A DNA stretch of 64,000 nt from Acidobacteriota bacterium (lineage in GTDB: Bacteria > Acidobacteriota > Holophagae > Thermotomaculales > Thermotomaculaceae). Location: contig JAADGL010000016.1 in assembly GCA_013152385.1 (NCBI GenBank), positions 47,694 to 111,693 on the forward strand, read 5' to 3'. Positions 2,414 through 64,000 of the stretch are shown here, one piece after another. Every line of letters begins with the position of its first letter. Position 1 is the stretch's first letter. The position numbers and the translations under genes are program-made. Below the pieces are notes generated by a model. It saw only the letters and a list, made by a program, of their open reading frames with translations, did no database searches and was not told the origin of the DNA.

Positions 2414-4276
2414 TCACATCTTGAAGTAGAATCGAAGGATTCCGCCAATGGTTAACAGAAAAAAGCCGAGAAAGACAATGTAGACGCCCGGATCCCGGAC
2501 AACGGAAATTCCGGAATAGGTTGGATCCTTTGGGTCATAATTGGACTGGTAAAAATAGTATCCGCCGAAGTGCAGCGGGTTATTCACTTCCACCTTCTTT
2601 TTCAGAACAACTTTTCCGTCTTTCAGGACAGACAGATAGCTCCGATAGGCTTCCGGGGAATCGTCCTTATTTCTGAGGAGAAGGGCGACGCGTCCATTGT
2701 CCAGGAAAGTAGCCGATTTGTCGGAAGCTCCAAAAATGGCGGTTGTTTTTTTGCCGTTCTGGATCCACTGAACCTGCACAACCGGGTTGTTGGGTTTGTC
2801 CGAAAGGCTGAACTCCTGTTTGACTTTTTTTGCATGGGGAAGGAAGCTCTTGAATTCAAAACTCATATCTCCGATTTTTAAAAATCCGTTTTCCAGTTTT
2901 CCTTTTTCGAATTTTTTCCCGGTGTTTGTTTTTTCATAATTTCCGTCTGCGCTGACAATGTAAACCGGTTTGCCTTTCAATGACGGGACAAAGGTGAACC
3001 GGATGGCGGCATCGCCGGGAAGCTTTTTCCCGTGGGTAAAGTCGGGGAAATTGGCAAATACCCATTGGGTTGTTTTTTCACCGGTTTTTTTGTTTTCAAA
3101 AATCAGCTCCAGTGCCGGGTTGTCGGGGGTTTTTCCTGCCGAAACAATTTCTTTGGTTTTATCATCAATGCTGAAAGAGGGGAAGAACCGCCCGATTTTG
3201 ACTGAGGTGTCGCCGGTGAAGGGGTAGGTTTTTCCTTCTTTTACCGAAAGAAGCCGATGGCTGCCGTCGGGAAAGGTGATGCTGAGGAGCTTCTGTTCCG
3301 AAATGACATTGCGGGGGTTTTTCGGCATTTTCCATTTAAAAATGATCATCCCCTCTTTATCCGGCATGAAGAACCGGTCGTCTCCGGTACGGTCAAAAAA
3401 GTACGCTGTCTGTAAATGGCCGGCTTCGTGGAGCACCACCTTGACGGCTCCGGGCCCGGTGTCGGTGGGGACCGCCACTTCCCGGTTGGCATAGTCCGGG
3501 TAGTATTTCAGGATTTTCAGTACCCCGTGGGCTTCTTTCACCGGATATTCCGCATTTTCTTTTGATTTGAATGAATACGGCATTCCGAATTTTGCTTTGG
3601 AATCCGGCCTTGTATATACGTAGACGCGGTAATCCGGCGCGTAGTGGTCAACCTCAAATTTGTCCAGCCGCAACTGAAATCCCATGTCTTTTTTCTGGTT
3701 TAACAGCTGGTTGTATTTGGTTAACTGAAATTGGCTGACAATATCGCCTTCATGGAAATTGATATAGCCTTTTACACCGAAAAATGCGCTGATGGAGCCG
3801 CCGATGACAATGATCAGAATACTTAAATGAATCAGAAAAAATCCGAGTTTTTTTCTCCAGACCGACAACTGATTCAGTGTACAAATCAGAATGTTAAGGT
3901 TCAGAAGAATAACAAGGCCGGAAAACCAGAGAGAGTGGTAGGTGTCTCCCAGGGAAAACAGTTTTACAAATTTATAAAAACCGGGTGAATAGGATTGCAG
4001 ATAGCGGGCGGGAGCGACATTTTGAAGGATGAGGGTCCCGATAATCACCGCAATGGTAAAGAAAACCAGTATGGAAGCTGCCAGTTTCATGGACCGGAAG
4101 AAATCCAGTACATTCTTCGGGCTGCGTATGGTGACAACGATCAGAAAAATTGCCAGTGCCGCAGTGAGCCCATAAAAGACCGGTTTATTCAGATTTGCCG
4201 CCGCCTGTAGTATCAGCAGGTAAACTGTAATTAAGCCGGTTGCGGACAGGTAAAATGCCAGTGATTTTTTTCTCAA
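2414..4276 (-). CDS. resB: cytochrome c biogenesis protein ResB/Ccs1 (CcsB)
   Basis: N-terminal ResB hallmark FFRSMKLAASILVFFTIAVIIGTLILQN, a large soluble middle domain and a C-terminal TM. TTG start with AAGGAG upstream. Immediately upstream of ccsA. Confidence 0.8.
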   Translation of the reverse strand: MRKKSLAFYLSATGLITVYLLILQAAANLNKPVFYGLTAALAIFLIVVTIRSPKNVLDFFRSMKLAASILVFFTIAVIIGTLILQNVAPARYLQSYSPGFYKFVKLFSLGDTYHSLWFSGLVILLNLNILICTLNQLSVWRKKLGFFLIHLSILIIVIGGSISAFFGVKGYINFHEGDIVSQFQLTKYNQLLNQKKDMGFQLRLDKFEVDHYAPDYRVYVYTRPDSKAKFGMPYSFKSKENAEYPVKEAHGVLKILKYYPDYANREVAVPTDTGPGAVKVVLHEAGHLQTAYFFDRTGDDRFFMPDKEGMIIFKWKMPKNPRNVISEQKLLSITFPDGSHRLLSVKEGKTYPFTGDTSVKIGRFFPSFSIDDKTKEIVSAGKTPDNPALELIFENKKTGEKTTQWVFANFPDFTHGKKLPGDAAIRFTFVPSLKGKPVYIVSADGNYEKTNTGKKFEKGKLENGFLKIGDMSFEFKSFLPHAKKVKQEFSLSDKPNNPVVQVQWIQNGKKTTAIFGASDKSATFLDNGRVALLLRNKDDSPEAYRSYLSVLKDGKVVLKKKVEVNNPLHFGGYYFYQSNYDPKDPTYSGISVVRDPGVYIVFLGFFLLTIGGILRFYFKM

Positions 4277-4389: not shown

Positions 4390-5934
4390 TCATTTTTTCT
4401 TTTGAAGGCCTTCGATATATGCACTCATCACATTCCTGAGGGAATCGACAGAGAATGCTGTGGCTTTCGGCCGGGTTTGTGCGTTGAAATACCCGCCTCC
4501 GCCTCCGAAAATGTAAGTTGTCATATCAATGGTGTACCTGGCATCATTTTTAAAAGCCTTATCTCCGATTTTCCGGATTTCCACACGATTTCCTTCCGGA
4601 CGGGAAGGATGAACCGAGTAATCCACACCCGGGAAGAATGCAAACTGAAAAAAGGGACAGCCATTTTTCAGTTTCCCTTCCGAATCCATCATCCCGGCAG
4701 CATGTTCCATTATTGTTTTCAGCTGGTTGCCGGTCACAGAAATCTGAACCAGATAGTTGTCATAGGGAAGCAGTTTGAACAGGTGGCGGTTTACCACCGT
4801 TGCCCGTTTGGATTTGACCCGAAGGCCCGGATTTGAGACTGTAACAAGCTGCACATCGGAATTTTTCCAGGACTGCATGCTATCGGCAATGAAATAAGAT
4901 GCGGTGTCCGGTGCAAGAGGGTCATCAGTGAACTCAAGGGGATGTTTGTATTTGCCAAGATCCGTATCCATGAAGTCGGCTGTGCCCCTGTCCAGTTTCC
5001 GAACTTTTTTTTCTATTTTTTTGTCAATTTCGGAATCATTAACTTTCAATGTAGTGGAGCTTTTTCCGAGAATTTCCCATTTGCCGTCCCGACGCTGTAA
5101 GTCAATCAGAACAATTCCGATGGATTTCGCGTGATCTTTCGGCTGGCAGAGCAATACCCCGTTGTACATTTCCAGCGGCACCTCCTTATGGGTATGGCCG
5201 AAAAGAATCACGTCAATGCCCGGCACGTTTTCCACAACCTGATACACGGCATTTTCGTTCATGGAGCCGGTTTGCAATTTTTGTCCCTCTCCGCTGTGAA
5301 CCAGGCCGATAATGATGTCGGCTCCCTGCTGTTTCAGCATAGCTACAGCCTTTTTTGCAGATTTTACCATGTCAAGAAAATGCGCCCCTTCCAGAACGGC
5401 CGGTGTTTCAAAGTGTTCCGTGGCAGGGGTGGTCAGCCCGAAAAATCCGATTTTGACTCCTGAACGTTTGATGATGACAGTGCCTGGAAAAAGCGGTTGA
5501 TTATTTTTGTCAAGAACATTTGCCGAAATCCACGGGAACCCGGTATCGGCAGTGTTTTGTTTCAATACCCCGGTACCGAAATCAAAATCATGGTTTCCCG
5601 GTACCGCCACATCGTATTTCAGCATCCGCATTGCCGTGACCACAGGATTATTTCTGTCAGCGGCGTGATAGTGCTGGTAGAACGTCAGCGGATTTCCCAC
5701 AAAGGTATCTCCGCAGTCCACGAGAATGGTGTTATCTTTGCTTTTTCGAAGTTTTTCAATGAGCGGGCCCGCCTGAGCAAGGCCGTAACCCAGCTTTTTC
5801 CCGGTAACGTAATCTTTTCCGGTTATGTTGCCATGGATATCGGTTGTTGCCAGGATTGTAATGGTAACTTCTTTGGCGGCAACGGTGAAAAAAACGCTTG
5901 CCGTAAGGGCAAGAATGAAGATCAAACGACGCAT
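4390..5934 (-). CDS. secreted bifunctional metallophosphatase / 5'-nucleotidase (UshA-like)
   Basis: Signal peptide MRRLIFILALTASVFFTVAA. Metallophosphoesterase motifs TTDIHGN, DCGDTFVGN, GNHDFDFG and GHTHKE, plus a C-terminal 5'-nucleotidase-type domain. Confidence 0.8.
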   Translation of the reverse strand: MRRLIFILALTASVFFTVAAKEVTITILATTDIHGNITGKDYVTGKKLGYGLAQAGPLIEKLRKSKDNTILVDCGDTFVGNPLTFYQHYHAADRNNPVVTAMRMLKYDVAVPGNHDFDFGTGVLKQNTADTGFPWISANVLDKNNQPLFPGTVIIKRSGVKIGFFGLTTPATEHFETPAVLEGAHFLDMVKSAKKAVAMLKQQGADIIIGLVHSGEGQKLQTGSMNENAVYQVVENVPGIDVILFGHTHKEVPLEMYNGVLLCQPKDHAKSIGIVLIDLQRRDGKWEILGKSSTTLKVNDSEIDKKIEKKVRKLDRGTADFMDTDLGKYKHPLEFTDDPLAPDTASYFIADSMQSWKNSDVQLVTVSNPGLRVKSKRATVVNRHLFKLLPYDNYLVQISVTGNQLKTIMEHAAGMMDSEGKLKNGCPFFQFAFFPGVDYSVHPSRPEGNRVEIRKIGDKAFKNDARYTIDMTTYIFGGGGGYFNAQTRPKATAFSVDSLRNVMSAYIEGLQKKK

Positions 5935-6713: not shown

Positions 6714-7109
6714 ATGCCGGTTTTTGAATCCACTGAAAAGATGTATGAGGTTTTGGGGGATCTTTTTGAAACACTGCTTGCGCATCCGGTGGCAGGCGAG
6801 AAGTTCAAAAAGCAGGAAGTGGTTATCCGTTTCATCATGAATGACCCCCAGGGTGAGATATGGCTTCTTCCCGAAGGAAAAGTGGTTTGCGGTGTTCCGG
6901 ATGGAGTAAAAGCGGACATTTCGATGACATTGAGCGGCGATACTGCGCATAATTTCTGGTTGAAGAAAATTACCATGCCGGTTGCACTCGCGAAAGGTTT
7001 GATTCGGGCGAAGGGGCCGCTGGCAAAGGTACTGAAACTTCTTCCGATTCTGAACCCCGCATACGAGGCTTACCCCGCAATCGCGGAAAAACACGGGCTG
7101 AGTATTTAG
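6714..7109 (+). CDS. SCP2 sterol/lipid-carrier domain protein
   Basis: 131-aa protein whose pattern (KADISMTLSGDTAHNFWLKKITMPVALAKGLIRAKGPL) is characteristic of SCP-2 sterol transfer domains. Confidence 0.7.
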   Translation: MPVFESTEKMYEVLGDLFETLLAHPVAGEKFKKQEVVIRFIMNDPQGEIWLLPEGKVVCGVPDGVKADISMTLSGDTAHNFWLKKITMPVALAKGLIRAKGPLAKVLKLLPILNPAYEAYPAIAEKHGLSI

Positions 7110-17407: not shown

Positions 17408-17468
17408 AAGTGCGAGTGTAAGTGCGGGAGAGTGAAAGTGAAAGTGCGGGTGTGAGGGAGAATGTGCG
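17408..17468. repeat. GTG-rich low-complexity tract with three exact AAGTGCG copies plus tandem AGTGAA
   Basis: AAGTGCG at 17408, 17420 and 17442. AGTGAAAGTGAAAGTG at 17431-17446. Variant AATGTGCG at 17461. Confidence 0.8.
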
Positions 17469-48480: not shown

Positions 48481-49318
48481 TTGACACCTCCAGGTAGCTC
48501 TCGGCGCAGGCGCAGGCCAGTGTTCGGACCCGGTTGATGAACCGTGCCCGTTCTGTGACGCTGATGGCGTTGCGGGCATCCAGTACATTGAAGGCGTGGG
48601 AGCATTTCAATGCGTTGTCAAAGGCTGCGATTGGAAGTTTTTCGTCCAGAACCCGACGGCATTCCGCCTCGTACAGGTCGAAGAGTTTGAAGTGAAGATC
48701 AATGTCAGCCAGTTCAAAACTGTACTTTGAAAACTCGTATTCATCTCTTTTCCGAATTTCCCCGTAGCTGACGCCGTGGGCCCATTCGAGTTTATACATG
48801 TTGTCAATGCCGTTGATAAACATGCAGATCCTTTCTATTCCGTAGGTGATTTCCACCGAGACCGGTTTCAGGTCTATTCCACCGGCCTGCTGAAAGTAGG
48901 TAAACTGGGTGATTTCCATTCCGTCCAGCAGAACCTGCCAGCCCACGCCCCATGCACCCAGTGTCGGCGATTCCCAGTTGTCTTCTTCAAAACGAATGTC
49001 GTGCTCTTCCGGCTTGATTCCAAATGCTTTGAGGCTTTCAATGTACAAGTCCTGAATATTGTCCGGACTGGGTTTCATGATTACCTGAAACTGGTAGTGT
49101 TTGTACACCCGGAACGGGTTTTCCCCGTAGCGTCCGTCGGTGGGACGGCGGGAGGGTTCCACATAGGCGACATTCCAGGGTTTTTCGTCCAGTACCCGGA
49201 GAAATGTATGGGGGTTCATGGTTCCGGCCCCGGTTTCGATGTCATAGGGCTGTGAAATCAGGCAGCCGTGTTTTGACCAGAAATTCTGTAATGCCAAAAT
49301 CAATTCCTGAAAATTCAA
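48473..49318 (-). CDS. glyQ: glycine--tRNA ligase alpha subunit
   Basis: [12 protein letters not shown]...[19 protein letters not shown]... is highly conserved GlyQ sequence. TTG start with AAGGAAGGA upstream. Confidence 0.9.
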
Positions 49319-52702: not shown

Positions 52703-53158
52703 ATGTGTAATACGCCCCGTTCTTTTTTGCAGGATGAACTCCCGAAAGGCAGCGGTGCGCGGGTCTGTTTCGGCTGCGGGGCCGATAATGTCCACGGACT
52801 CAGAATCAAAAGCTGGGCGGAAAAGGGAAAATGTCTGTGCCGGTTTCATCCGGAACCGCATCATACCGCTTTCCCCGGTGTGGTGAATGGCGGAGTAATT
52901 GCCACTGTGCTGGACTGCCACGGAATCTGGACCGCCGTTGCCTATTATCGGGAAAAATACGGGAAAGCGGTGATGTTTGTTACCCGGAAGCTGACGGTGG
53001 AATATTTGAAACCTACGCCTCTGGGCCCGGAACTTATTCTGGAAGGCCGTGCGGTTCGGGAAGGGGGCCGTTCAGTGACGGTTGAGCTGGAAATGCGGGC
53101 CGGTAACGAGGTGACGGCCCGGGCCGAACTGGTGGGTGTCCGTCTGGAAGATGAATAA
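52703..53158 (+). CDS. PaaI/hotdog-fold thioesterase with N-terminal Cys motif
   Basis: CFGCGADNVHGLRIK, FPGVVNGGVIATVLDCHG (hotdog core). The ATG directly abuts the upstream stop. Confidence 0.7.
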   Translation: MCNTPRSFLQDELPKGSGARVCFGCGADNVHGLRIKSWAEKGKCLCRFHPEPHHTAFPGVVNGGVIATVLDCHGIWTAVAYYREKYGKAVMFVTRKLTVEYLKPTPLGPELILEGRAVREGGRSVTVELEMRAGNEVTARAELVGVRLEDE

Positions 53159-53170
53159 AGAAAAGAAGAG

Positions 53171-53198
53171 GTGTTCCGTGTTCCGTGTTCCGTGTTCT
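53171..53198. repeat. tandem heptamer repeat (GTGTTCC)x3 + GTGTTCT
   Basis: Read directly: gtgttcc gtgttcc gtgttcc gtgttct. A complementary CAGAACACAGAACACG lies at 53291-53306. Confidence 0.9.
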
Positions 53199-53374
53199 GA
53201 CCGGAAAAAGACAAAAAGAAGCTATCTTCCATTTGCATTTAAATTGAGCATTAAAGTGCCCGCCTATACGCACATTACTTTCTCTTCTTTCAGAACACAG
53301 AACACGTTTTCCTTCAGTATCCTGATCTTTCTTGCGCTCGCACACACACATTCACTTCCCCGGAGGGGAACCGG

Positions 53375-54349
53375 ATGAAGGTTCTGGTAACAGGGGGCGC
53401 CGGTTACATCGGTTCCCATGTGGTAAGACAATTGCTGTTGCGGGGAGACGATGTGCTTGTTGCGGATAATTTGAGTAACGGGCATCGGGAAGCGGCGGGA
53501 ACCGCCTGTCTGGAGGTAATGGACCTTTCTGACAATGCCGGGTTCAGAAATTTATTGAAAACCTTTCAGCCGGAAGCCGTAATCCATTTCGCTGCTTTCA
53601 TTGAAGTGGGGGAATCGATGCAAAACCCGTTGAAATATTATCAAAACAATACGGCGAACGGATTTACTTTACTGGCCGCATGCAGGGATTCAGGGGTGAA
53701 AAATTTTATATTTTCATCAAGCGCCGCAGTTTACGGTACCCCGAAAGCGGTACCGGTTCCGGAAACAGCCCCCCCTGCCCCCATTAACCCCTACGGCTTT
53801 TCAAAGCTGTTTGTGGAGCAGGCGTTGCGGGACATGGCGACCTCTGCCGATTTCCGGTATGTGGCGCTTCGTTACTTTAATGCGGCGGGAGCGGACCCGT
53901 CCGGGGAAATCGGAGAATCTCACAATCCGGAAAGCCACCTGATTCCGCTGATTTTGAAAGCTGCTTCCGGAGAGCGGGAAGGTATAAAAATTTTTGGTAC
54001 GGATTATTCCACCCCTGACGGCACATGCGTCCGGGACTATGTTCATGTTAATGATCTGGCGGATGCCCACCTAAAAGCACTGGATTATCTGAGGGACGGC
54101 GGTGAAAGCCGTGTGTTCAACTGCGGATATGGCCGCGGCTATTCGGTTCGGGAAGTCGTGGCGGCTGTACGGCAGGTGACGGGAAAGGATTTTTCAGTGA
54201 CGGAAGCACCCCGAAGGGCAGGAGACCCGGCAGAGCTGGTGGCGGACAGCCGGGAGCTGGCAGAAACATTGAAGTGGAAGCCGCAGTTTGATAATCTGAG
54301 AACCATTATTGAAACTGCCTGGAATTGGGAATTGAACCGGAGGTATTGA
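53375..54349 (+). CDS. galE: UDP-glucose 4-epimerase
   Basis: VLVTGGAGYIGSH, YGFSKLFVEQ (YxxxK), about 324 aa, GalE-type C-terminus. Confidence 0.85.
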   Translation: MKVLVTGGAGYIGSHVVRQLLLRGDDVLVADNLSNGHREAAGTACLEVMDLSDNAGFRNLLKTFQPEAVIHFAAFIEVGESMQNPLKYYQNNTANGFTLLAACRDSGVKNFIFSSSAAVYGTPKAVPVPETAPPAPINPYGFSKLFVEQALRDMATSADFRYVALRYFNAAGADPSGEIGESHNPESHLIPLILKAASGEREGIKIFGTDYSTPDGTCVRDYVHVNDLADAHLKALDYLRDGGESRVFNCGYGRGYSVREVVAAVRQVTGKDFSVTEAPRRAGDPAELVADSRELAETLKWKPQFDNLRTIIETAWNWELNRRY

Positions 54350-59657: not shown

Positions 59658-61109
59658 GTGGCCGGAGTCAGGGATCAGATCCGGAAATGGCTCGGTATTA
59701 TTCTGTTAATGTTTGCAGATCTTGTCGTTTATGGATTATCACTGGGGCTTGCTCATGCGGCTCGGCTTGCTCTGAATGAAATTGTGGCAGTCCAATTCCG
59801 GACCCCGTTTCACTATTATATTTTCATCTGGTGGATTCCTCTGGTATATCTTGTCATTTACATTTATGAGGGCCTTTATTCCAGACGTTCTCCTTATTGG
59901 GATGAGGTTGGCAGGCTGCTTCGAGCTGATTTTATCGGAACCGGCGCCATTTTCGCGATTCTTACGCTGTTGAAAATGTCTGATCGTTATTCCAGGTTAC
60001 TGTTGTTGTTAATGTGGTTGTTTCTGGTATTTTTACATCCTCTGTTTCGTTTCTGGGGGAAACGGATATTGTTTTCTTTGGGCATCTGGCGGGAAAAAGT
60101 GGCAGTATGGGGTACGGGCCCCCTGGCGGTATCATTGGCAAAAGCCCTGATTTCGGACCGTCATATGGGGTTTGAGCTCATTGGTTTTATTTCTTTTTCT
60201 CCCATTGAGAAGACTGCGGTGCAAATGTCCGGCGGGCACAGTTTTCCGATACTGGGCACATTGGAAAGTGCAATTGATTCCGGGGCGGTTAGCCGCAGCA
60301 CGCGGATTGCTCTTGCCGATGAGGAGATGACATCTGAAAGTGCGTCTGCAAGATTGAATGACATGGTTCGCTACTTTCACAACATTCTGCTTGTTCCGTC
60401 CGCCTTGAAAATACCGGTATTGAATACGGAACCTCTACATCTCTTCCGGGAACAGATGATGGTACTGAAAATCAGGAACAATCTTTTATCTCCATTAAAC
60501 CGCATAATCAAACGGGGGTTCGATCTGGTCTTAACTTTTCTTGTTCTTCCGTTTCTTTTGCCCTTGGGGCTGTTTTTGGCTCTTTTAATTCGTCTCGAAT
60601 CGTCCGGTGAGGTGATTTTCAGCCAGGAAAGAATCGGACATCGGGGGAAGCGGTTCAGGTTATATAAATTTCGTTCCATGTATAGAGATAATGATAGAAT
60701 TTTGAAACAATATCTCGCTGAGAATTCGGAGGCGGAAGTGGAATGGAAGCGGTACAGAAAATTTCGCGGAACAGATCCTCGGGTGACCCGGGTCGGCCGT
60801 TTTCTCAGAAAAGCTTCACTGGATGAATTGCCGCAATTTCTGAATGTGCTGAAAGGAGAAATGAGTCTTGTGGGGCCCCGGCCTTATCTTCCCGGTGAAA
60901 GAGAGGAGATGGGTGCGAAATTTGACATAATTGTGGAGGCGCGGCCGGGAATTTCCGGGCTCTGGCAGGTTTCCGGCCGGAACAATCTGGATTTTACCGA
61001 CCGGCTTCGGCTGGATGAGTGGTATGTTTCCAACTGGACCCTCTGGCTGGATGTGGAAATTCTGGTTAAAACCGTCGGGGTGGTACTGAAGCGGGACGGA
61101 GCGTATTAG
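59658..61109 (+). CDS. polyprenyl-phosphate glycosyl-1-phosphate transferase (WbaP/EpsB-type initiating sugar transferase)
   Basis: N-terminal TM bundle and C-terminal bacterial sugar transferase domain (RPGISGLWQVSGRN, DELPQFLNVLKGEMSLVGPRP). GTG at 59658 just after the wzz stop; the ORF track starts at 59568. Confidence 0.8.
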   Translation: MAGVRDQIRKWLGIILLMFADLVVYGLSLGLAHAARLALNEIVAVQFRTPFHYYIFIWWIPLVYLVIYIYEGLYSRRSPYWDEVGRLLRADFIGTGAIFAILTLLKMSDRYSRLLLLLMWLFLVFLHPLFRFWGKRILFSLGIWREKVAVWGTGPLAVSLAKALISDRHMGFELIGFISFSPIEKTAVQMSGGHSFPILGTLESAIDSGAVSRSTRIALADEEMTSESASARLNDMVRYFHNILLVPSALKIPVLNTEPLHLFREQMMVLKIRNNLLSPLNRIIKRGFDLVLTFLVLPFLLPLGLFLALLIRLESSGEVIFSQERIGHRGKRFRLYKFRSMYRDNDRILKQYLAENSEAEVEWKRYRKFRGTDPRVTRVGRFLRKASLDELPQFLNVLKGEMSLVGPRPYLPGEREEMGAKFDIIVEARPGISGLWQVSGRNNLDFTDRLRLDEWYVSNWTLWLDVEILVKTVGVVLKRDGAY

Positions 61110-61234
61110 ATAAGACATGACGGGAGGAGAGAGGAGGATATAGAGAGTTGCATTTGTTGGAAAATTTTGAAGAGATTTGCAAGAGACTGTTTTCACCAAT
61201 TTGATTTTTGAGGCAGAAGTTTGAGAGGTAAAGA

Positions 61235-62155
61235 ATGAACAAAGAAAAGAAACAGGCCGTTTCCCGTCACTCTCTTGACAGGTTGGACCGGCTGGAAAGC
61301 AGAAGTGTCCATATTTTCAGAGAAGCTTACAGTGAATTTACCAATCTGTGCATGTTGTGGTCCATTGGAAAAGACAGCACCGTTCTTCTATGGCTGGCAC
61401 GGAAAGCTTTTTTCGGCCATGTTCCGTTCCCGCTGGTACATGTGGATACACACTACAAAATTCCGGAGATGATTGAATTTCGGGATAGAGTCGCGAGGGA
61501 GTGGGAACTGGATATGATTTACGGGGAAAACAGAAATGCTCTTGAAAAAAAAGAAACATTTCCGGACGGAAACGCGACCCGGCTGGAATGCTGCCGGAAT
61601 TTGAAAACCCTGGCTTTGCAGAATACCCTCGCCGGAACCTGGCCCCGGTATCGGATGAACCACAGTACCGGGAAATATGAAATAGACAGCAATCGGGAAC
61701 CCTATACCGGAGTCATCGTGGGTGTCCGTGCCGACGAAGAAGGGAGCCGTTCCAAAGAACGTTATTTTTCGCCGCGGGATTCATACAACAACTGGGATGT
61801 GGGGGATCAGCCGCCGGAGCTCTGGAACCAGTTTAAAACAGATTTTGCTCCGGGCACCCATGTCCGGATTCATCCGCTTCTTGATTGGACGGAACTTGAT
61901 ATCTGGGAATACATTGGCCGGGAGAAGATTCCGATTGTGGACCTGTATTTTGACAGGGGAGAAGGCAAACGTTACCGGTCACTGGGGTGTTGGCCCTGCA
62001 CTTCTCCTGTTGAATCCACCGCAAAGAATGTAGCGGAGGTGATTGAAGAGCTGAAAACCGGCAAATTTGCGAACATTGCCGAGCGTGCGGGCCGGGAACA
62101 GGACAAAGAAGACGGAGGCGGACTCGAAGAATTGCGCAAAGACGGATACATGTAA
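61235..62155 (+). CDS. cysD: sulfate adenylyltransferase subunit 2
   Basis: [16 protein letters not shown]...[20 protein letters not shown] (PAPS-reductase fold PP-loop), about 306 aa. Confidence 0.9.
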
Positions 62156-62179
62156 TCGTGCAGAGCACAATTACATGTA
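62147..62179 (+). other. 14-bp stem hairpin spanning the cysD stop codon
   Basis: TACATGTAAT-c-GTGC-aga-GCAC-a-ATTACATGTA: 10 + 4 bp with one C/A mismatch and no T-run after it. Confidence 0.7.
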
Positions 62180-62186
62180 CGTGGAT

Positions 62187-62210
62187 AGTGGAAGGTGAAT
62201 AGTGGATGGT
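62187..62210. repeat. left arm of an imperfect inverted repeat flanking the four-helix-bundle gene
   Basis: AGTGGAAGGTGAATAGTGGATGGT matches the reverse complement of 62636-62659 at 20 of 24 positions (hand count). It is itself built from GTGRATAGTGGA units. Confidence 0.6.
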
Positions 62211-62215
62211 ATAAA

Positions 62216-62593
62216 ATGAGTAAAAGGATTGTAGATTTTAAGGAAATGCGAGTGTGGCAGATGTCGATGGATTTTACTGAAAGCGTTTACAGGTTATCCA
62301 ACGATTTTCCAAAGTCCGAAATTTGTGGATTAACTTCACAAATCAGGAGATGTGCTGTTTCAATTCCTTCCAACATAGCCGAAGGCTTTTCCAGAAAATC
62401 AACAAAGGAGTTTATTCAATTTCTATATGTATCGTTAGGGTCGTGTTCTGAATGTGAAACCCAGCTTATGATTGCAAGGAGAGTTGGTTATTTGGAATCT
62501 GAAAGAGAAATCATGGTCGATTTGATTTCCATCACGAAAATGATTTATTCCTTGATCGCATCACTAAATAAGAGGAAAACTAATGGCAAATAA
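62216..62593 (+). CDS. four-helix-bundle protein (23S rRNA intervening-sequence protein / Avd-like family)
   Basis: [28 protein letters not shown]...[22 protein letters not shown]...[20 protein letters not shown] is the signature of this family. Confidence 0.85.
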
Positions 62594-64000
62594 AGAAAAC
62601 AGTTTCGAACAGGTAAAGACATCTCTATCCTCTTCACCATCCGCCATTCACCGTCCACCCTCTACTGATAACAGTGAGCTGTTGTCACTCGTGATCGTGG
62701 GGCACGTGGATCATGGAAAATCCACCATTCTCGGCCGCCTTCTGGCAGACACCGGTTCATTGCCGGAAGGGAAACTGGATTTTATCCGGGAACAGTGCCG
62801 CCGGAATTCCAAACCGTTCGAGTATGCTTTTTTGCTGGATGCATTGAAAGACGAGCAGGCTCAGGGAATTACCATTGATGCGGCCCGGTGTTTCTTTAAG
62901 ACTGAAAAACGTGGCTACATTATTCTGGACGCGCCGGGGCATATTGAATTTTTGAAAAACATGGTCACCGGAGCATCCCGGGCGGAAGCGGCACTGCTTG
63001 TGATTGATGCAAAAGAAGGGGTTCGGGAAAATTCCCGGCGTCACGGCTATCTGTTATCCATGCTGGGGATTTGGCAGGTGGCGGTGGTGGTGAACAAAAT
63101 GGACCTGGTGAATTGGGATGAACAGGTGTTCCGGAGAATTAAAACCGAGTACGGAGAATTTCTCAAAAAAATCGGGGTTCAGCCCCGAATCTTCATTCCG
63201 GTATCGGGCAGGGAAGGGGACAATGTGGCTGAATTGTCAGAAAAGATGAACTGGTATACCGGACCCACTGTTCTGGAACAACTGGATGACTTTATGCCGG
63301 TCCAACCGCCGCAGGATAAACCATTCCGTATGCCGGTTCAGGCTGTTTACAAATTTACGGCAGGGGGAGATGACCGCCGGATTGTAGCCGGTTCCGTGGA
63401 GAGCGGAAAGCTTTCGGTGGGAGACGAAGTTGTTTTTTATCCGTCCGGAAAGCGCAGCCGGGTCAAGAGCATTGAGGCATTTAACCGCAGGCCGCTTCCG
63501 GATTCGGTATCTGCCGGTTATGCGACGGGGTTCACAATGGAAGAGCAGGTATATGTCCGGCGGGGGGAATTGGCTGTGCTTTCCGGAGAAGCTGCGCCGA
63601 AGGTGGGCAGACGGCTCAGGGTGAATTTATTCTGGCTGGGCAAGAATCCCTTGGTGACGGGAAAAGATTATTTTCTGAAAATCGGTACTGCCAGGGTGCG
63701 AATGCAGCTTTTTCACGTGGATCGGGTTATTGATGCCTCCACTCTGGAACCGGTAACCCGTCATGATGTGCGGCGCCACGATGTGGCGGAATGTGTGTTG
63801 GAGCTGGAACGCGCGGTAGCATTTGATACGGCATCGGAAATTCAGGAAACCAGCCGGTTTGTGATTGTGGATGATTATGAAATACGAGGCGGCGGGATTA
63901 TTCTGGGTTCATTGACAGATCAGACAAAAGATATTCGGGAAAAAGTGTTTCTGCGAAACTATAGATGGGAACGAAGCCGGATTCCCCGGGAACTCCGGGC
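62583..64000 (+). CDS. cysN: sulfate adenylyltransferase subunit 1 (GTPase), 3' end outside window; possibly a CysNC fusion
   Basis: My own translation from the ATG at 62583 gives MANKENSF...[22 protein letters not shown]...[14 protein letters not shown]...LDAPGHIEF...VVNKMDLV. The frame is open to nt 64000. It is absent from the ORF track, apparently because it has no stop in the window. Confidence 0.85.
62636..62659. repeat. right arm of the imperfect inverted repeat (lies inside the non-conserved N-terminal codons of cysN)
   Basis: ACCATCCGCCATTCACCGTCCACC. See the left arm at 62187-62210. Confidence 0.6.

Follow-up and report, generated by a model that had tools for sequence, protein, structure and literature searches.

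Between cysD and cysN, in the sulfate-activation operon of an Acidobacteriota bacterium, lies a gene of the four-helix-bundle (4HB) family PF05635 that is bracketed by inverted arrays of heptamers, here called arms. The whole stretch of DNA analysed, 64,000 nt of contig JAADGL010000016.1, is referred to as the window, and the genome it belongs to, which is 99.3% complete, as G000. The locus is a module of the type known from rRNA genes as an intervening sequence (IVS), situated within an ordinary operon where it rewrites gene starts, and it is new relative to the literature that we searched. Positions ~62156 to 62693 probably represent the type A allele of a set of interchangeable IVS-type PF05635 cassettes, a unit that has been replaced, has spread, has been relocated and is decaying. 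Near-identical relatives carry a different cassette at the same spot, which indicates that cassettes are exchanged, copied and gutted; this turnover, apparently on short evolutionary time scales, is what is new here.

The rRNA IVSs that bear an open reading frame (ORF), like the very large PF05635 family, have raised questions since about 1990 as to their origin, mobility and purpose. A study of the Coxiella burnetii element offers only hypotheses on the origin of IVSs, namely that they are left over from transposition or were mobile at one time (Warrier et al. 2016, PMC4990558). The present locus supplies natural, nucleotide-resolved evidence of an IVS-type module exchanged between strains, moved with its arms between sites, and decaying.

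Evidence for exchange and relocation of cassettes

In this genus the operon consists of a sugar transferase gene, cysD, cysNC and a cysC-like gene, and all three gaps are cassette sites. Site 2 (cysD/cysNC) holds type A in G000, L061, L062, L064, G003 and G008, type B in G002 and G004, and, in L148, whose cysD is the closest to that of the window, a third arm type (D). Type U occupies site 1, ahead of cysD, in G003 and L064; site 3 follows cysNC and is taken by type C in L061 and L062 and by type U in G002 and G004. Types A and B are 21% identical in alignment, and the proteins of cassettes B, U and C all pass the PF05635 cut-off. Each type has its own heptamer: GTGGATN in A, GGTGATG in U, GTGTTCN in C, and GTTAGAT/GTTGAAT in B. 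Relatives that have the cassette retain the flanking repeats. G004 was rejected as an example of an empty site 1, its apparent gap being 100 N of scaffold in a haplotype whose other assemblies show a U cassette.

Three supported sister pairs in the cysD tree are all unlike at site 2: G000 (A) with L148 (D), L061 (A) with G002 (B), and L064 (A) with G004 (B). The last pair is one species with two haplotypes, A (L064/L065) being found in two separate assemblies and B (L228-L232) in five. L064 and L229 are 99.23% identical over the 1821 nt of the left flank, which comprises the transferase end, a U cassette and cysD, and 99.57% identical over 1846 nt of cysNC in the right flank. Between these flanks are a 537-nt cassette A in L064 and a 744-nt cassette B in L229, without mutual similarity. 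The left break falls on the third base of the cysD stop codon and the right break between GT(G/T) and ATCGTGGG, the swap boundaries lying within ~10-30 nt of the cassette ends; mismatches in the flanks do not cluster at the junctions. These allele pairs with near-identical flanks, together with the relics described below, are a basis for the design of reporters and binding assays.

The cassettes also appear to be younger than their flanks. Synonymous divergence (dS) of cassette A ranges from 0.29 to 1.25 in genome pairs for which cysD ranges from 1.3 to saturation, and L064 and G003 are 93.9% identical in cassette A compared with 77% in cysD. The type-U copies of G003 (site 1) and G004 (site 3) are 90% identical in nucleotides (dS 0.27), and U copies at the two sites have the same GGTGATG/CATCACC arms and the same ATGAACAA as start and leader of the gene that follows. 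Because type U occurs at different sites with its own arms and leader, an arm-bounded unit with a donated start codon seems to have been copied between sites and species. This recurrence of one unit at different sites is seen across genomes and not within G000, where there is one intact copy. The first-pass annotation of the window had raised a past mobility event; the comparison points to events in the plural (the A/B haplotypes, the three discordant sister pairs, and U at two sites), and the mobility reading of the cassette is well supported by it.

What an unoccupied junction looks like is seen in two genomes of a neighbouring family, G038 and G023, where cysD and cysN overlap at ...TACATGTGATGCGG... 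with overlapping stop and start (ATGTGATG). For these two genomes the earlier statement that the two genes normally abut holds.

Three genomes have tandem duplications of cassette ends. In G008 (L055, about 4800-4950, minus strand) the left hairpin and left arm are present twice. In G002 (L056, 840-1010) the right arm and the GTGTCCCACG junction are repeated two to three times, as they are in G004 (L057, minus strand, 250 nt before cysN), with start-region fragments between the copies in both. These end-duplications could be footprints of repeated insertion or of unequal recombination.

Anatomy of the window cassette

The cassette is preceded by cysD, which encodes sulfate adenylyltransferase subunit 2 (61235-62155, plus strand, as are all features below; NF003587, 5.7e-106; PF01507), and homology of this region to L148 stops at 62154, within the stop codon. 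The type A 4HB gene (62216-62593, 125 aa) matches PF05635 at 129.6 bits (6.6e-38; curated cut-off 33.8) and TIGR02436 at 129.8 bits (4.6e-38; curated cut-off 24), so that the family assignment made at first pass holds. It is the only ORF of the cassette and the sole intact PF05635 gene in G000. Downstream is cysN/C, a CysN GTPase fused to adenosine 5'-phosphosulfate (APS) kinase (62583-64000, continuing past the window end; TIGR02034, 2.5e-104). Its full-length counterpart in L066 has 624 aa, and relatives have both the GTP_EFTU and the APS_kinase domain.

The cysN ATG at 62583 is preceded by AAGAGGAAAA and lies 11 nt ahead of the 4HB stop codon, which ends at 62593, within the end of the inserted gene as had been noted. 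From this ATG to 62693 the start codon and N-terminal leader of CysN/C come from the cassette, overlapping the 4HB stop by 11 nt and spanning the right arm and right hairpin as far as the codons ELLSLV. Family models of CysN match only from residues 28-34; therefore the non-conserved leader has about 31-33 residues. The first-pass annotation was right that such a leader exists but made it too long, at 38 aa. The cassette thus rewrites the start codon and N-terminus of an enzyme of an essential pathway, an arrangement not described in the literature searched. For annotation, the N-terminal 30-40 residues of CysN, CysD and CysC should be read as cassette-derived in these genomes.

The left arm (62181-62210; GTGGATA GTGGAAG GTGAATA GTGGATG) ends 5 nt ahead of the 4HB ATG. 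The right arm (62636-62665), found by inverted-repeat search and folding, is complementary to it and is translated within the CysN leader. The inverted repeats, first reported as 24 nt, extend to 30 nt each at 80% complementarity, and both are internally repetitive with a 7/14-nt period of GTGGATN heptamers. As RNA the arms form a duplex of -41.3 kcal/mol. Among 3000 segment pairs taken at equal spacing from the same window (mean -16.3, standard deviation 5.3) just one was as good, which places the repeat similarity above background. The minimum free energy (MFE) fold of 62140-62680 retains the arm stem (z = -4.0).

Both ends of the cassette carry a hairpin outside the arm. At the left end, 15-nt arms (62147-62161 and 62165-62179) pair at 14 of 15 positions, in agreement with the 14-bp stem described before, and the outer arm consists of the last codons of cysD and its TAA. 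The stability of this hairpin (-14.9 kcal/mol) is equalled or exceeded by 42 of 9139 windows of 33 nt. All six type-A genomes keep it, with compensatory changes at 4 pairs, among them TAA/TTA versus TGA/TCA; 96.6% of alignment cells are paired, and the observed covariation was reached in none of 500 shuffles. Because the hairpin has no T-run and is followed by CGTGGATAG, no terminator-like site is present at 62147-62179. More generally, no promoter- or terminator-like site was found inside the cassette, and there was no Rfam match in 60900-62900.

The right boundary hairpin (62667-62686, GATAACAG-TGAG-CTGTTGTC, -9.9 kcal/mol) had gone unreported, and it is to this point that the cassette extends. 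Its 3' arm codes for LLS of CysN. G003, L064, L061 and G008 have GACAACAG, with the U-G pair changed to C-G. Over ELLSLV, cassettes A and B use different synonymous codons, each complementary to the inner arm of its own cassette; the paired stretch is 8 bp long in A and, with an inner arm of 17 nt, 17 bp long in B. At its left end, type B repeats the 3' end of cysD as a perfect inverted copy of 17 nt. Boundary hairpins just outside the arms were considered as a hallmark of the whole cassette class and rejected, since they are not enriched among 52 diverse armed loci; they are a trait of this clade.

The wider class and its explanation

We collected 106 PF05635 loci: 19 from relatives, 80 from scanning species-representative genomes of many phyla with a profile built from an 8-sequence alignment, together with the copies in the operon. 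Inverted heptamer arrays bracket most of them; 46 lie above the 99th percentile of a null with mismatched flanks, and many others are visibly armed. The heptamer varies from locus to locus, yet agrees between both arms of one locus. Three loci from the same class as G000 lie within bacterial large-subunit (LSU) rRNA genes, on the rRNA strand and with the same arm design; in L011 and L012, PF05635 genes sit inside 23S (LSU) rRNA genes between inverted heptamer arms. That the ORF of the rRNA copies might be antisense was rejected, this impression being due to the orientation of the loci. Thus, the insert between cysD and cysN is the same kind of element as the ORF-bearing 23S IVSs, as the first-pass annotation had surmised, although the window cassette itself lies between two protein-coding genes and not inside a 23S rRNA gene, where an IVS proper sits in helix 25 or 45.

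The published IVSs of Coxiella (S23p) and Leptospira 23S rRNA likewise have a PF05635 ORF within terminal inverted repeats, and in the Coxiella type the repeats form a 25-30-bp stem with tandem heptamers beside the ORF start (PMC4990558). Unlike these, the window cassette is in a protein-coding operon, its right arm and end code for the N-terminus of the enzyme that follows, whose start codon also comes from the cassette. Excision in the stem, were it to take place here, would consequently harm the message instead of repairing it.

In Xanthomonas and Nostoc, inverted heptamer pairs of the GGGAATC type have been described in the spaces separating co-directional genes (Rehm et al. 2015, PMC4692102). 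Those arrays resemble the present ones in often forming convergent pairs, favouring aligned ORFs, varying in copy number and being transcribed. They were treated as G-quadruplex repeats, with no mention of a 4HB gene, whereas the arrays studied here bound a gene and vary in sequence from cassette to cassette.

Integron cassettes are promoterless single-gene modules that enter a transcribed array in one orientation and that strains exchange, and their recombination sites are imperfect inverted repeats in which structure is conserved over sequence. The cassettes described here are likewise promoterless one-gene modules with oriented insertion and exchange between strains. They differ in that the repeats bracket the ORF, in place of a compact attC at one end, and in that the cassette fuses in frame to the next gene; an integrase or attI is not evident in the operon, though neither was searched for.

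A CysD/PAPS-reductase-family gene (PAPS, 3'-phosphoadenosine 5'-phosphosulfate) lies directly upstream of the cassette in 3 of the 80 diverse PF05635 loci (L109, L110 and L141). A metagenome scan with CysD returned mostly distant cysD genes, the informative ones being L148, the closest relative, and L216, a metagenome contig of an AT-rich lineage with an independent 4HB cassette between cysD and cysN. The cysD 3' end may be a recurrent landing place for cassettes. In several distant cysD homologues on metagenome contigs (L170, L171, L174, L179, L187, L199, L211 and others), matches span 1110-1290 nt where 880 are expected, which suggests an insertion of 230-400 nt within the cysD coding region of these genes.

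For this locus we favour the following account. The cassette rides on the operon transcript, co-oriented with the operon and without a promoter or terminator of its own. From the left, a hairpin that spans the stop codon of the preceding gene leads into the left heptamer array, a ribosome-binding region rich in purines and the 4HB ORF, followed by a new ATG, a short Lys/Asn-rich leader, the translated right heptamer array and a hairpin over the first conserved downstream codons. By supplying that ATG, the cassette has taken over translation initiation of cysN, with the overlap of the ATG and the 4HB stop keeping the ancestral coupling of cysD and cysN. Swaps at one site may proceed by recombination in invariant blocks of ~17-26 nt, at the cysD end and at the strand of the cysN P-loop. 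Same-site replacement is probably due to homologous recombination, and the exact ends also fit a site-specific process. Loss of the ORF leaves the 3' part of a cassette in place, as at the cysD start in the window. The 4HB protein is under purifying selection, and for it we favour a part in maintaining the cassette or in binding nucleic acid.

There are at least two possibilities for how the arms are kept complementary. Pairing in the mRNA could be under selection, and the transcript arms can presumably close a 24-30-bp stem of the type cut by RNase III in rRNA IVSs. Alternatively, arm complementarity and perfect hairpins may be kept by a strand-symmetric DNA process such as arm-to-arm templated repair or template switching. 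Arm mismatches in 76 non-redundant armed loci comprise 64 of the G-U type and 95 of the A-C type on the mRNA strand, a weak test (p = 0.017) with an unexpected direction, since selection on the stem in the mRNA would have made G-U outnumber A-C. Avoidance of stop codons in translated right arms was rejected as the cause of the A-C excess, because untranslated arms give 59 G-U-type and 86 A-C-type mismatches. The lack of a G-U excess points to strand-symmetric upkeep at the DNA level and not to selection on mRNA pairing.

The strongest of the other explanations is that of an mRNA intervening sequence in the strict sense, in which RNase III cuts the stem and frees hairpin-capped cysD, 4HB and cysN mRNAs, this processing being the selected function. 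The arm stem is strong and retained in the MFE fold, an RNase III gene is encoded in G000, and the class to which G000 belongs includes true 23S IVSs built in this way. The Coxiella IVS, which has the same gene family and heptamers, is cut in vitro by RNase III in mid-stem (PMC4990558), and the covarying hairpins stand just outside both arms, where processed ends would be capped. However, the cysN ATG is upstream of the right arm, so that a cut in the stem severs cysN from its start, and cassette B has no conserved alternative start. Chemically, cleavage of the stem by RNase III is plausible, but a cut within the cysN leader would not be harmless as it is in rRNA: it would reduce cysN expression, or it might be blocked by translating ribosomes. 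The mismatch counts also speak against such processing, as does the fact that boundary hairpins are not general among the diverse armed loci. We regard this explanation as possible but doubtful.

A second explanation, which seems rather improbable, is an autonomous or protein-assisted mobile element whose 4HB protein recognises its own arms and promotes copying into new gaps with host replication and repair enzymes. It would account for a whole unit, with arms and leader, at two different sites, for the private heptamer of each cassette type, and for the purifying selection on the type A ORF (ratio of nonsynonymous to synonymous divergence 0.05-0.16, six genomes). An AlphaFold (AF2) model of the type A protein has four helices with a predicted local distance difference test score (pLDDT) of 91.5. 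Its best fold matches are 2gsc (XCC0516; TM score 0.77-0.88, root-mean-square deviation 1.4-1.7), also reached by sequence (E 7e-38), and 2rld (BT_0352; TM score 0.73-0.89). The deposited structures of both, which are the closest solved homologues, have five chains, and the related Avd, of the same 4HB fold and size, is a nucleic-acid-binding pentamer. On the other side, the protein lacks a catalytic domain, target duplication was not seen, the match of heptamer and protein type is equally explained by common descent, and the count of one intact and three gutted copies in G000 does not suggest current activity.

A further idea is that PF05635 cassettes are widespread, undescribed mobile modules, non-autonomous or protein-assisted, whose protein binds the hairpin of its own arms as single-stranded DNA or RNA and steers replication-coupled template switching, by which the arm-bounded unit would be copied into the spaces separating co-directional genes and into rRNA helices. 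We offer this as a speculation, and an unlikely one. If true, the unit would make itself hard to delete by replacing the downstream initiation region, and the rRNA intervening sequences would be a special case, that of an element landing in rRNA.

It is very improbable that the 4HB gene is just an accessory gene in the sulfate-activation operon, inherited vertically and flanked by chance low-complexity repeats. It is well conserved and has the same position in six genomes of two genera, but its arm complementarity was matched by one in 3000 controls, sister genomes have unrelated cassettes, and strains with near-identical flanks differ at the cassette. Moreover, cassette dS is far below flank dS, and the same design of arms and gene recurs in unrelated operons and in rRNA. 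Least credible of all is a remnant of a diversity-generating retroelement (DGR) with the 4HB gene as Avd, a relation mentioned at first pass that comes down to resemblance at the level of the fold: the Avd structure 4dwl gives a target-normalised TM score of 0.75-0.81, but with a Foldseek E of 0.075-0.1 at 10-11% identity; a sequence-profile search of the PDB did not reach Avd; no match to PF00078 (reverse transcriptase) was found in the five cassette-bearing genomes G000, G002, G003, G004 and G008; and template/variable repeats are not evident.

Several points weigh against the reading that we favour, that of exchanged, relocated and decaying cassettes. No recombinase, transposase or reverse transcriptase was linked to the cassettes, the transposase and integrase families not having been searched for genome-wide. 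No direct target-site duplication was seen at the junctions, where inverted copies of adjacent host sequence form the boundary hairpins. Same-site swaps need only homologous recombination and so are no proof of autonomous mobility. Movement is deduced by comparing assemblies that are mostly metagenome-derived and from uncultured organisms, and one comparison site (site 1 of G004) is an N gap resolved from other assemblies. The comparison of G-U and A-C mismatches is weak and may be confounded by composition, the left arms being G/T-rich. The low dS of the cassettes could stem in part from structural constraint on RNA or DNA. Finally, strong purifying selection implies that the protein is needed by the host or by the element, a reason that the model leaves unexplained.

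Gutted cassettes and solo arms

Besides the intact cassette, G000 has three gutted copies. The first is a type-U relic at 61110-61255, identified by alignment to intact U cassettes and now the start region of cysD. Over 104 nt, positions 61152-61255 match the 3' end of an intact U cassette, that of G002, at 83.7% identity (E 1e-27). The ORF lacks its first ~285 nt; the purine-rich part before the ATG falls within a 19-nt match, and identity runs through the ATGAACAAA start. The cysD start region, that is the 3' end, the ribosome-binding region, the start codon and the first leader codons, is therefore from the U relic, which had been missed earlier.

The second is a geneless type-C cassette at 53165-53305, between a gene at 52703-53158 and a galE-like gene at 53375, with (GTGTTCC)x4 ... 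(CAGAACA)x2 arms found by Tandem Repeats Finder. Its ends match the intact type-C cassettes of L061 and L062, at 90% over 41 nt on the left and at 96-100% over 25-27 nt on the right, which marks it as a gutted cassette. The third, recognised by its heptamer arrays, is a type-A arm pair forming a bare hairpin on the same contig outside the window (G000:C17:15020-15150). There, GTGCATG GTGAATA GTGGATA x3 GTGAATG GTGGACA follows directly on a stop codon and the complementary array comes about 25 nt downstream, with no gene between them and a pilin-like operon following.

Related genomes have remains of the same kind. Solo arms occur in G008, L061 and L062, the one in G008 being a C arm at site 3. 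In L062 the same truncated type-C copy of ~220 nt is present at sites 1 and 3 (2760-3060 and 6750-7050); consequently cysD and the cysC-like gene share a cassette-derived leader (M-T/I-ENKHTDKLKSNLSRSLLSE...).

Two further repeats were seen in the window. A GTG-rich tract of short repeats (AAGTGCG and AGTGAA units) at 17408-17468, in a spacer ahead of a pilin operon, may represent one more solo arm. Positions 48583-48607 and 49022-49046 form a 25-nt inverted repeat that is 80% complementary, with arms 414 nt apart.

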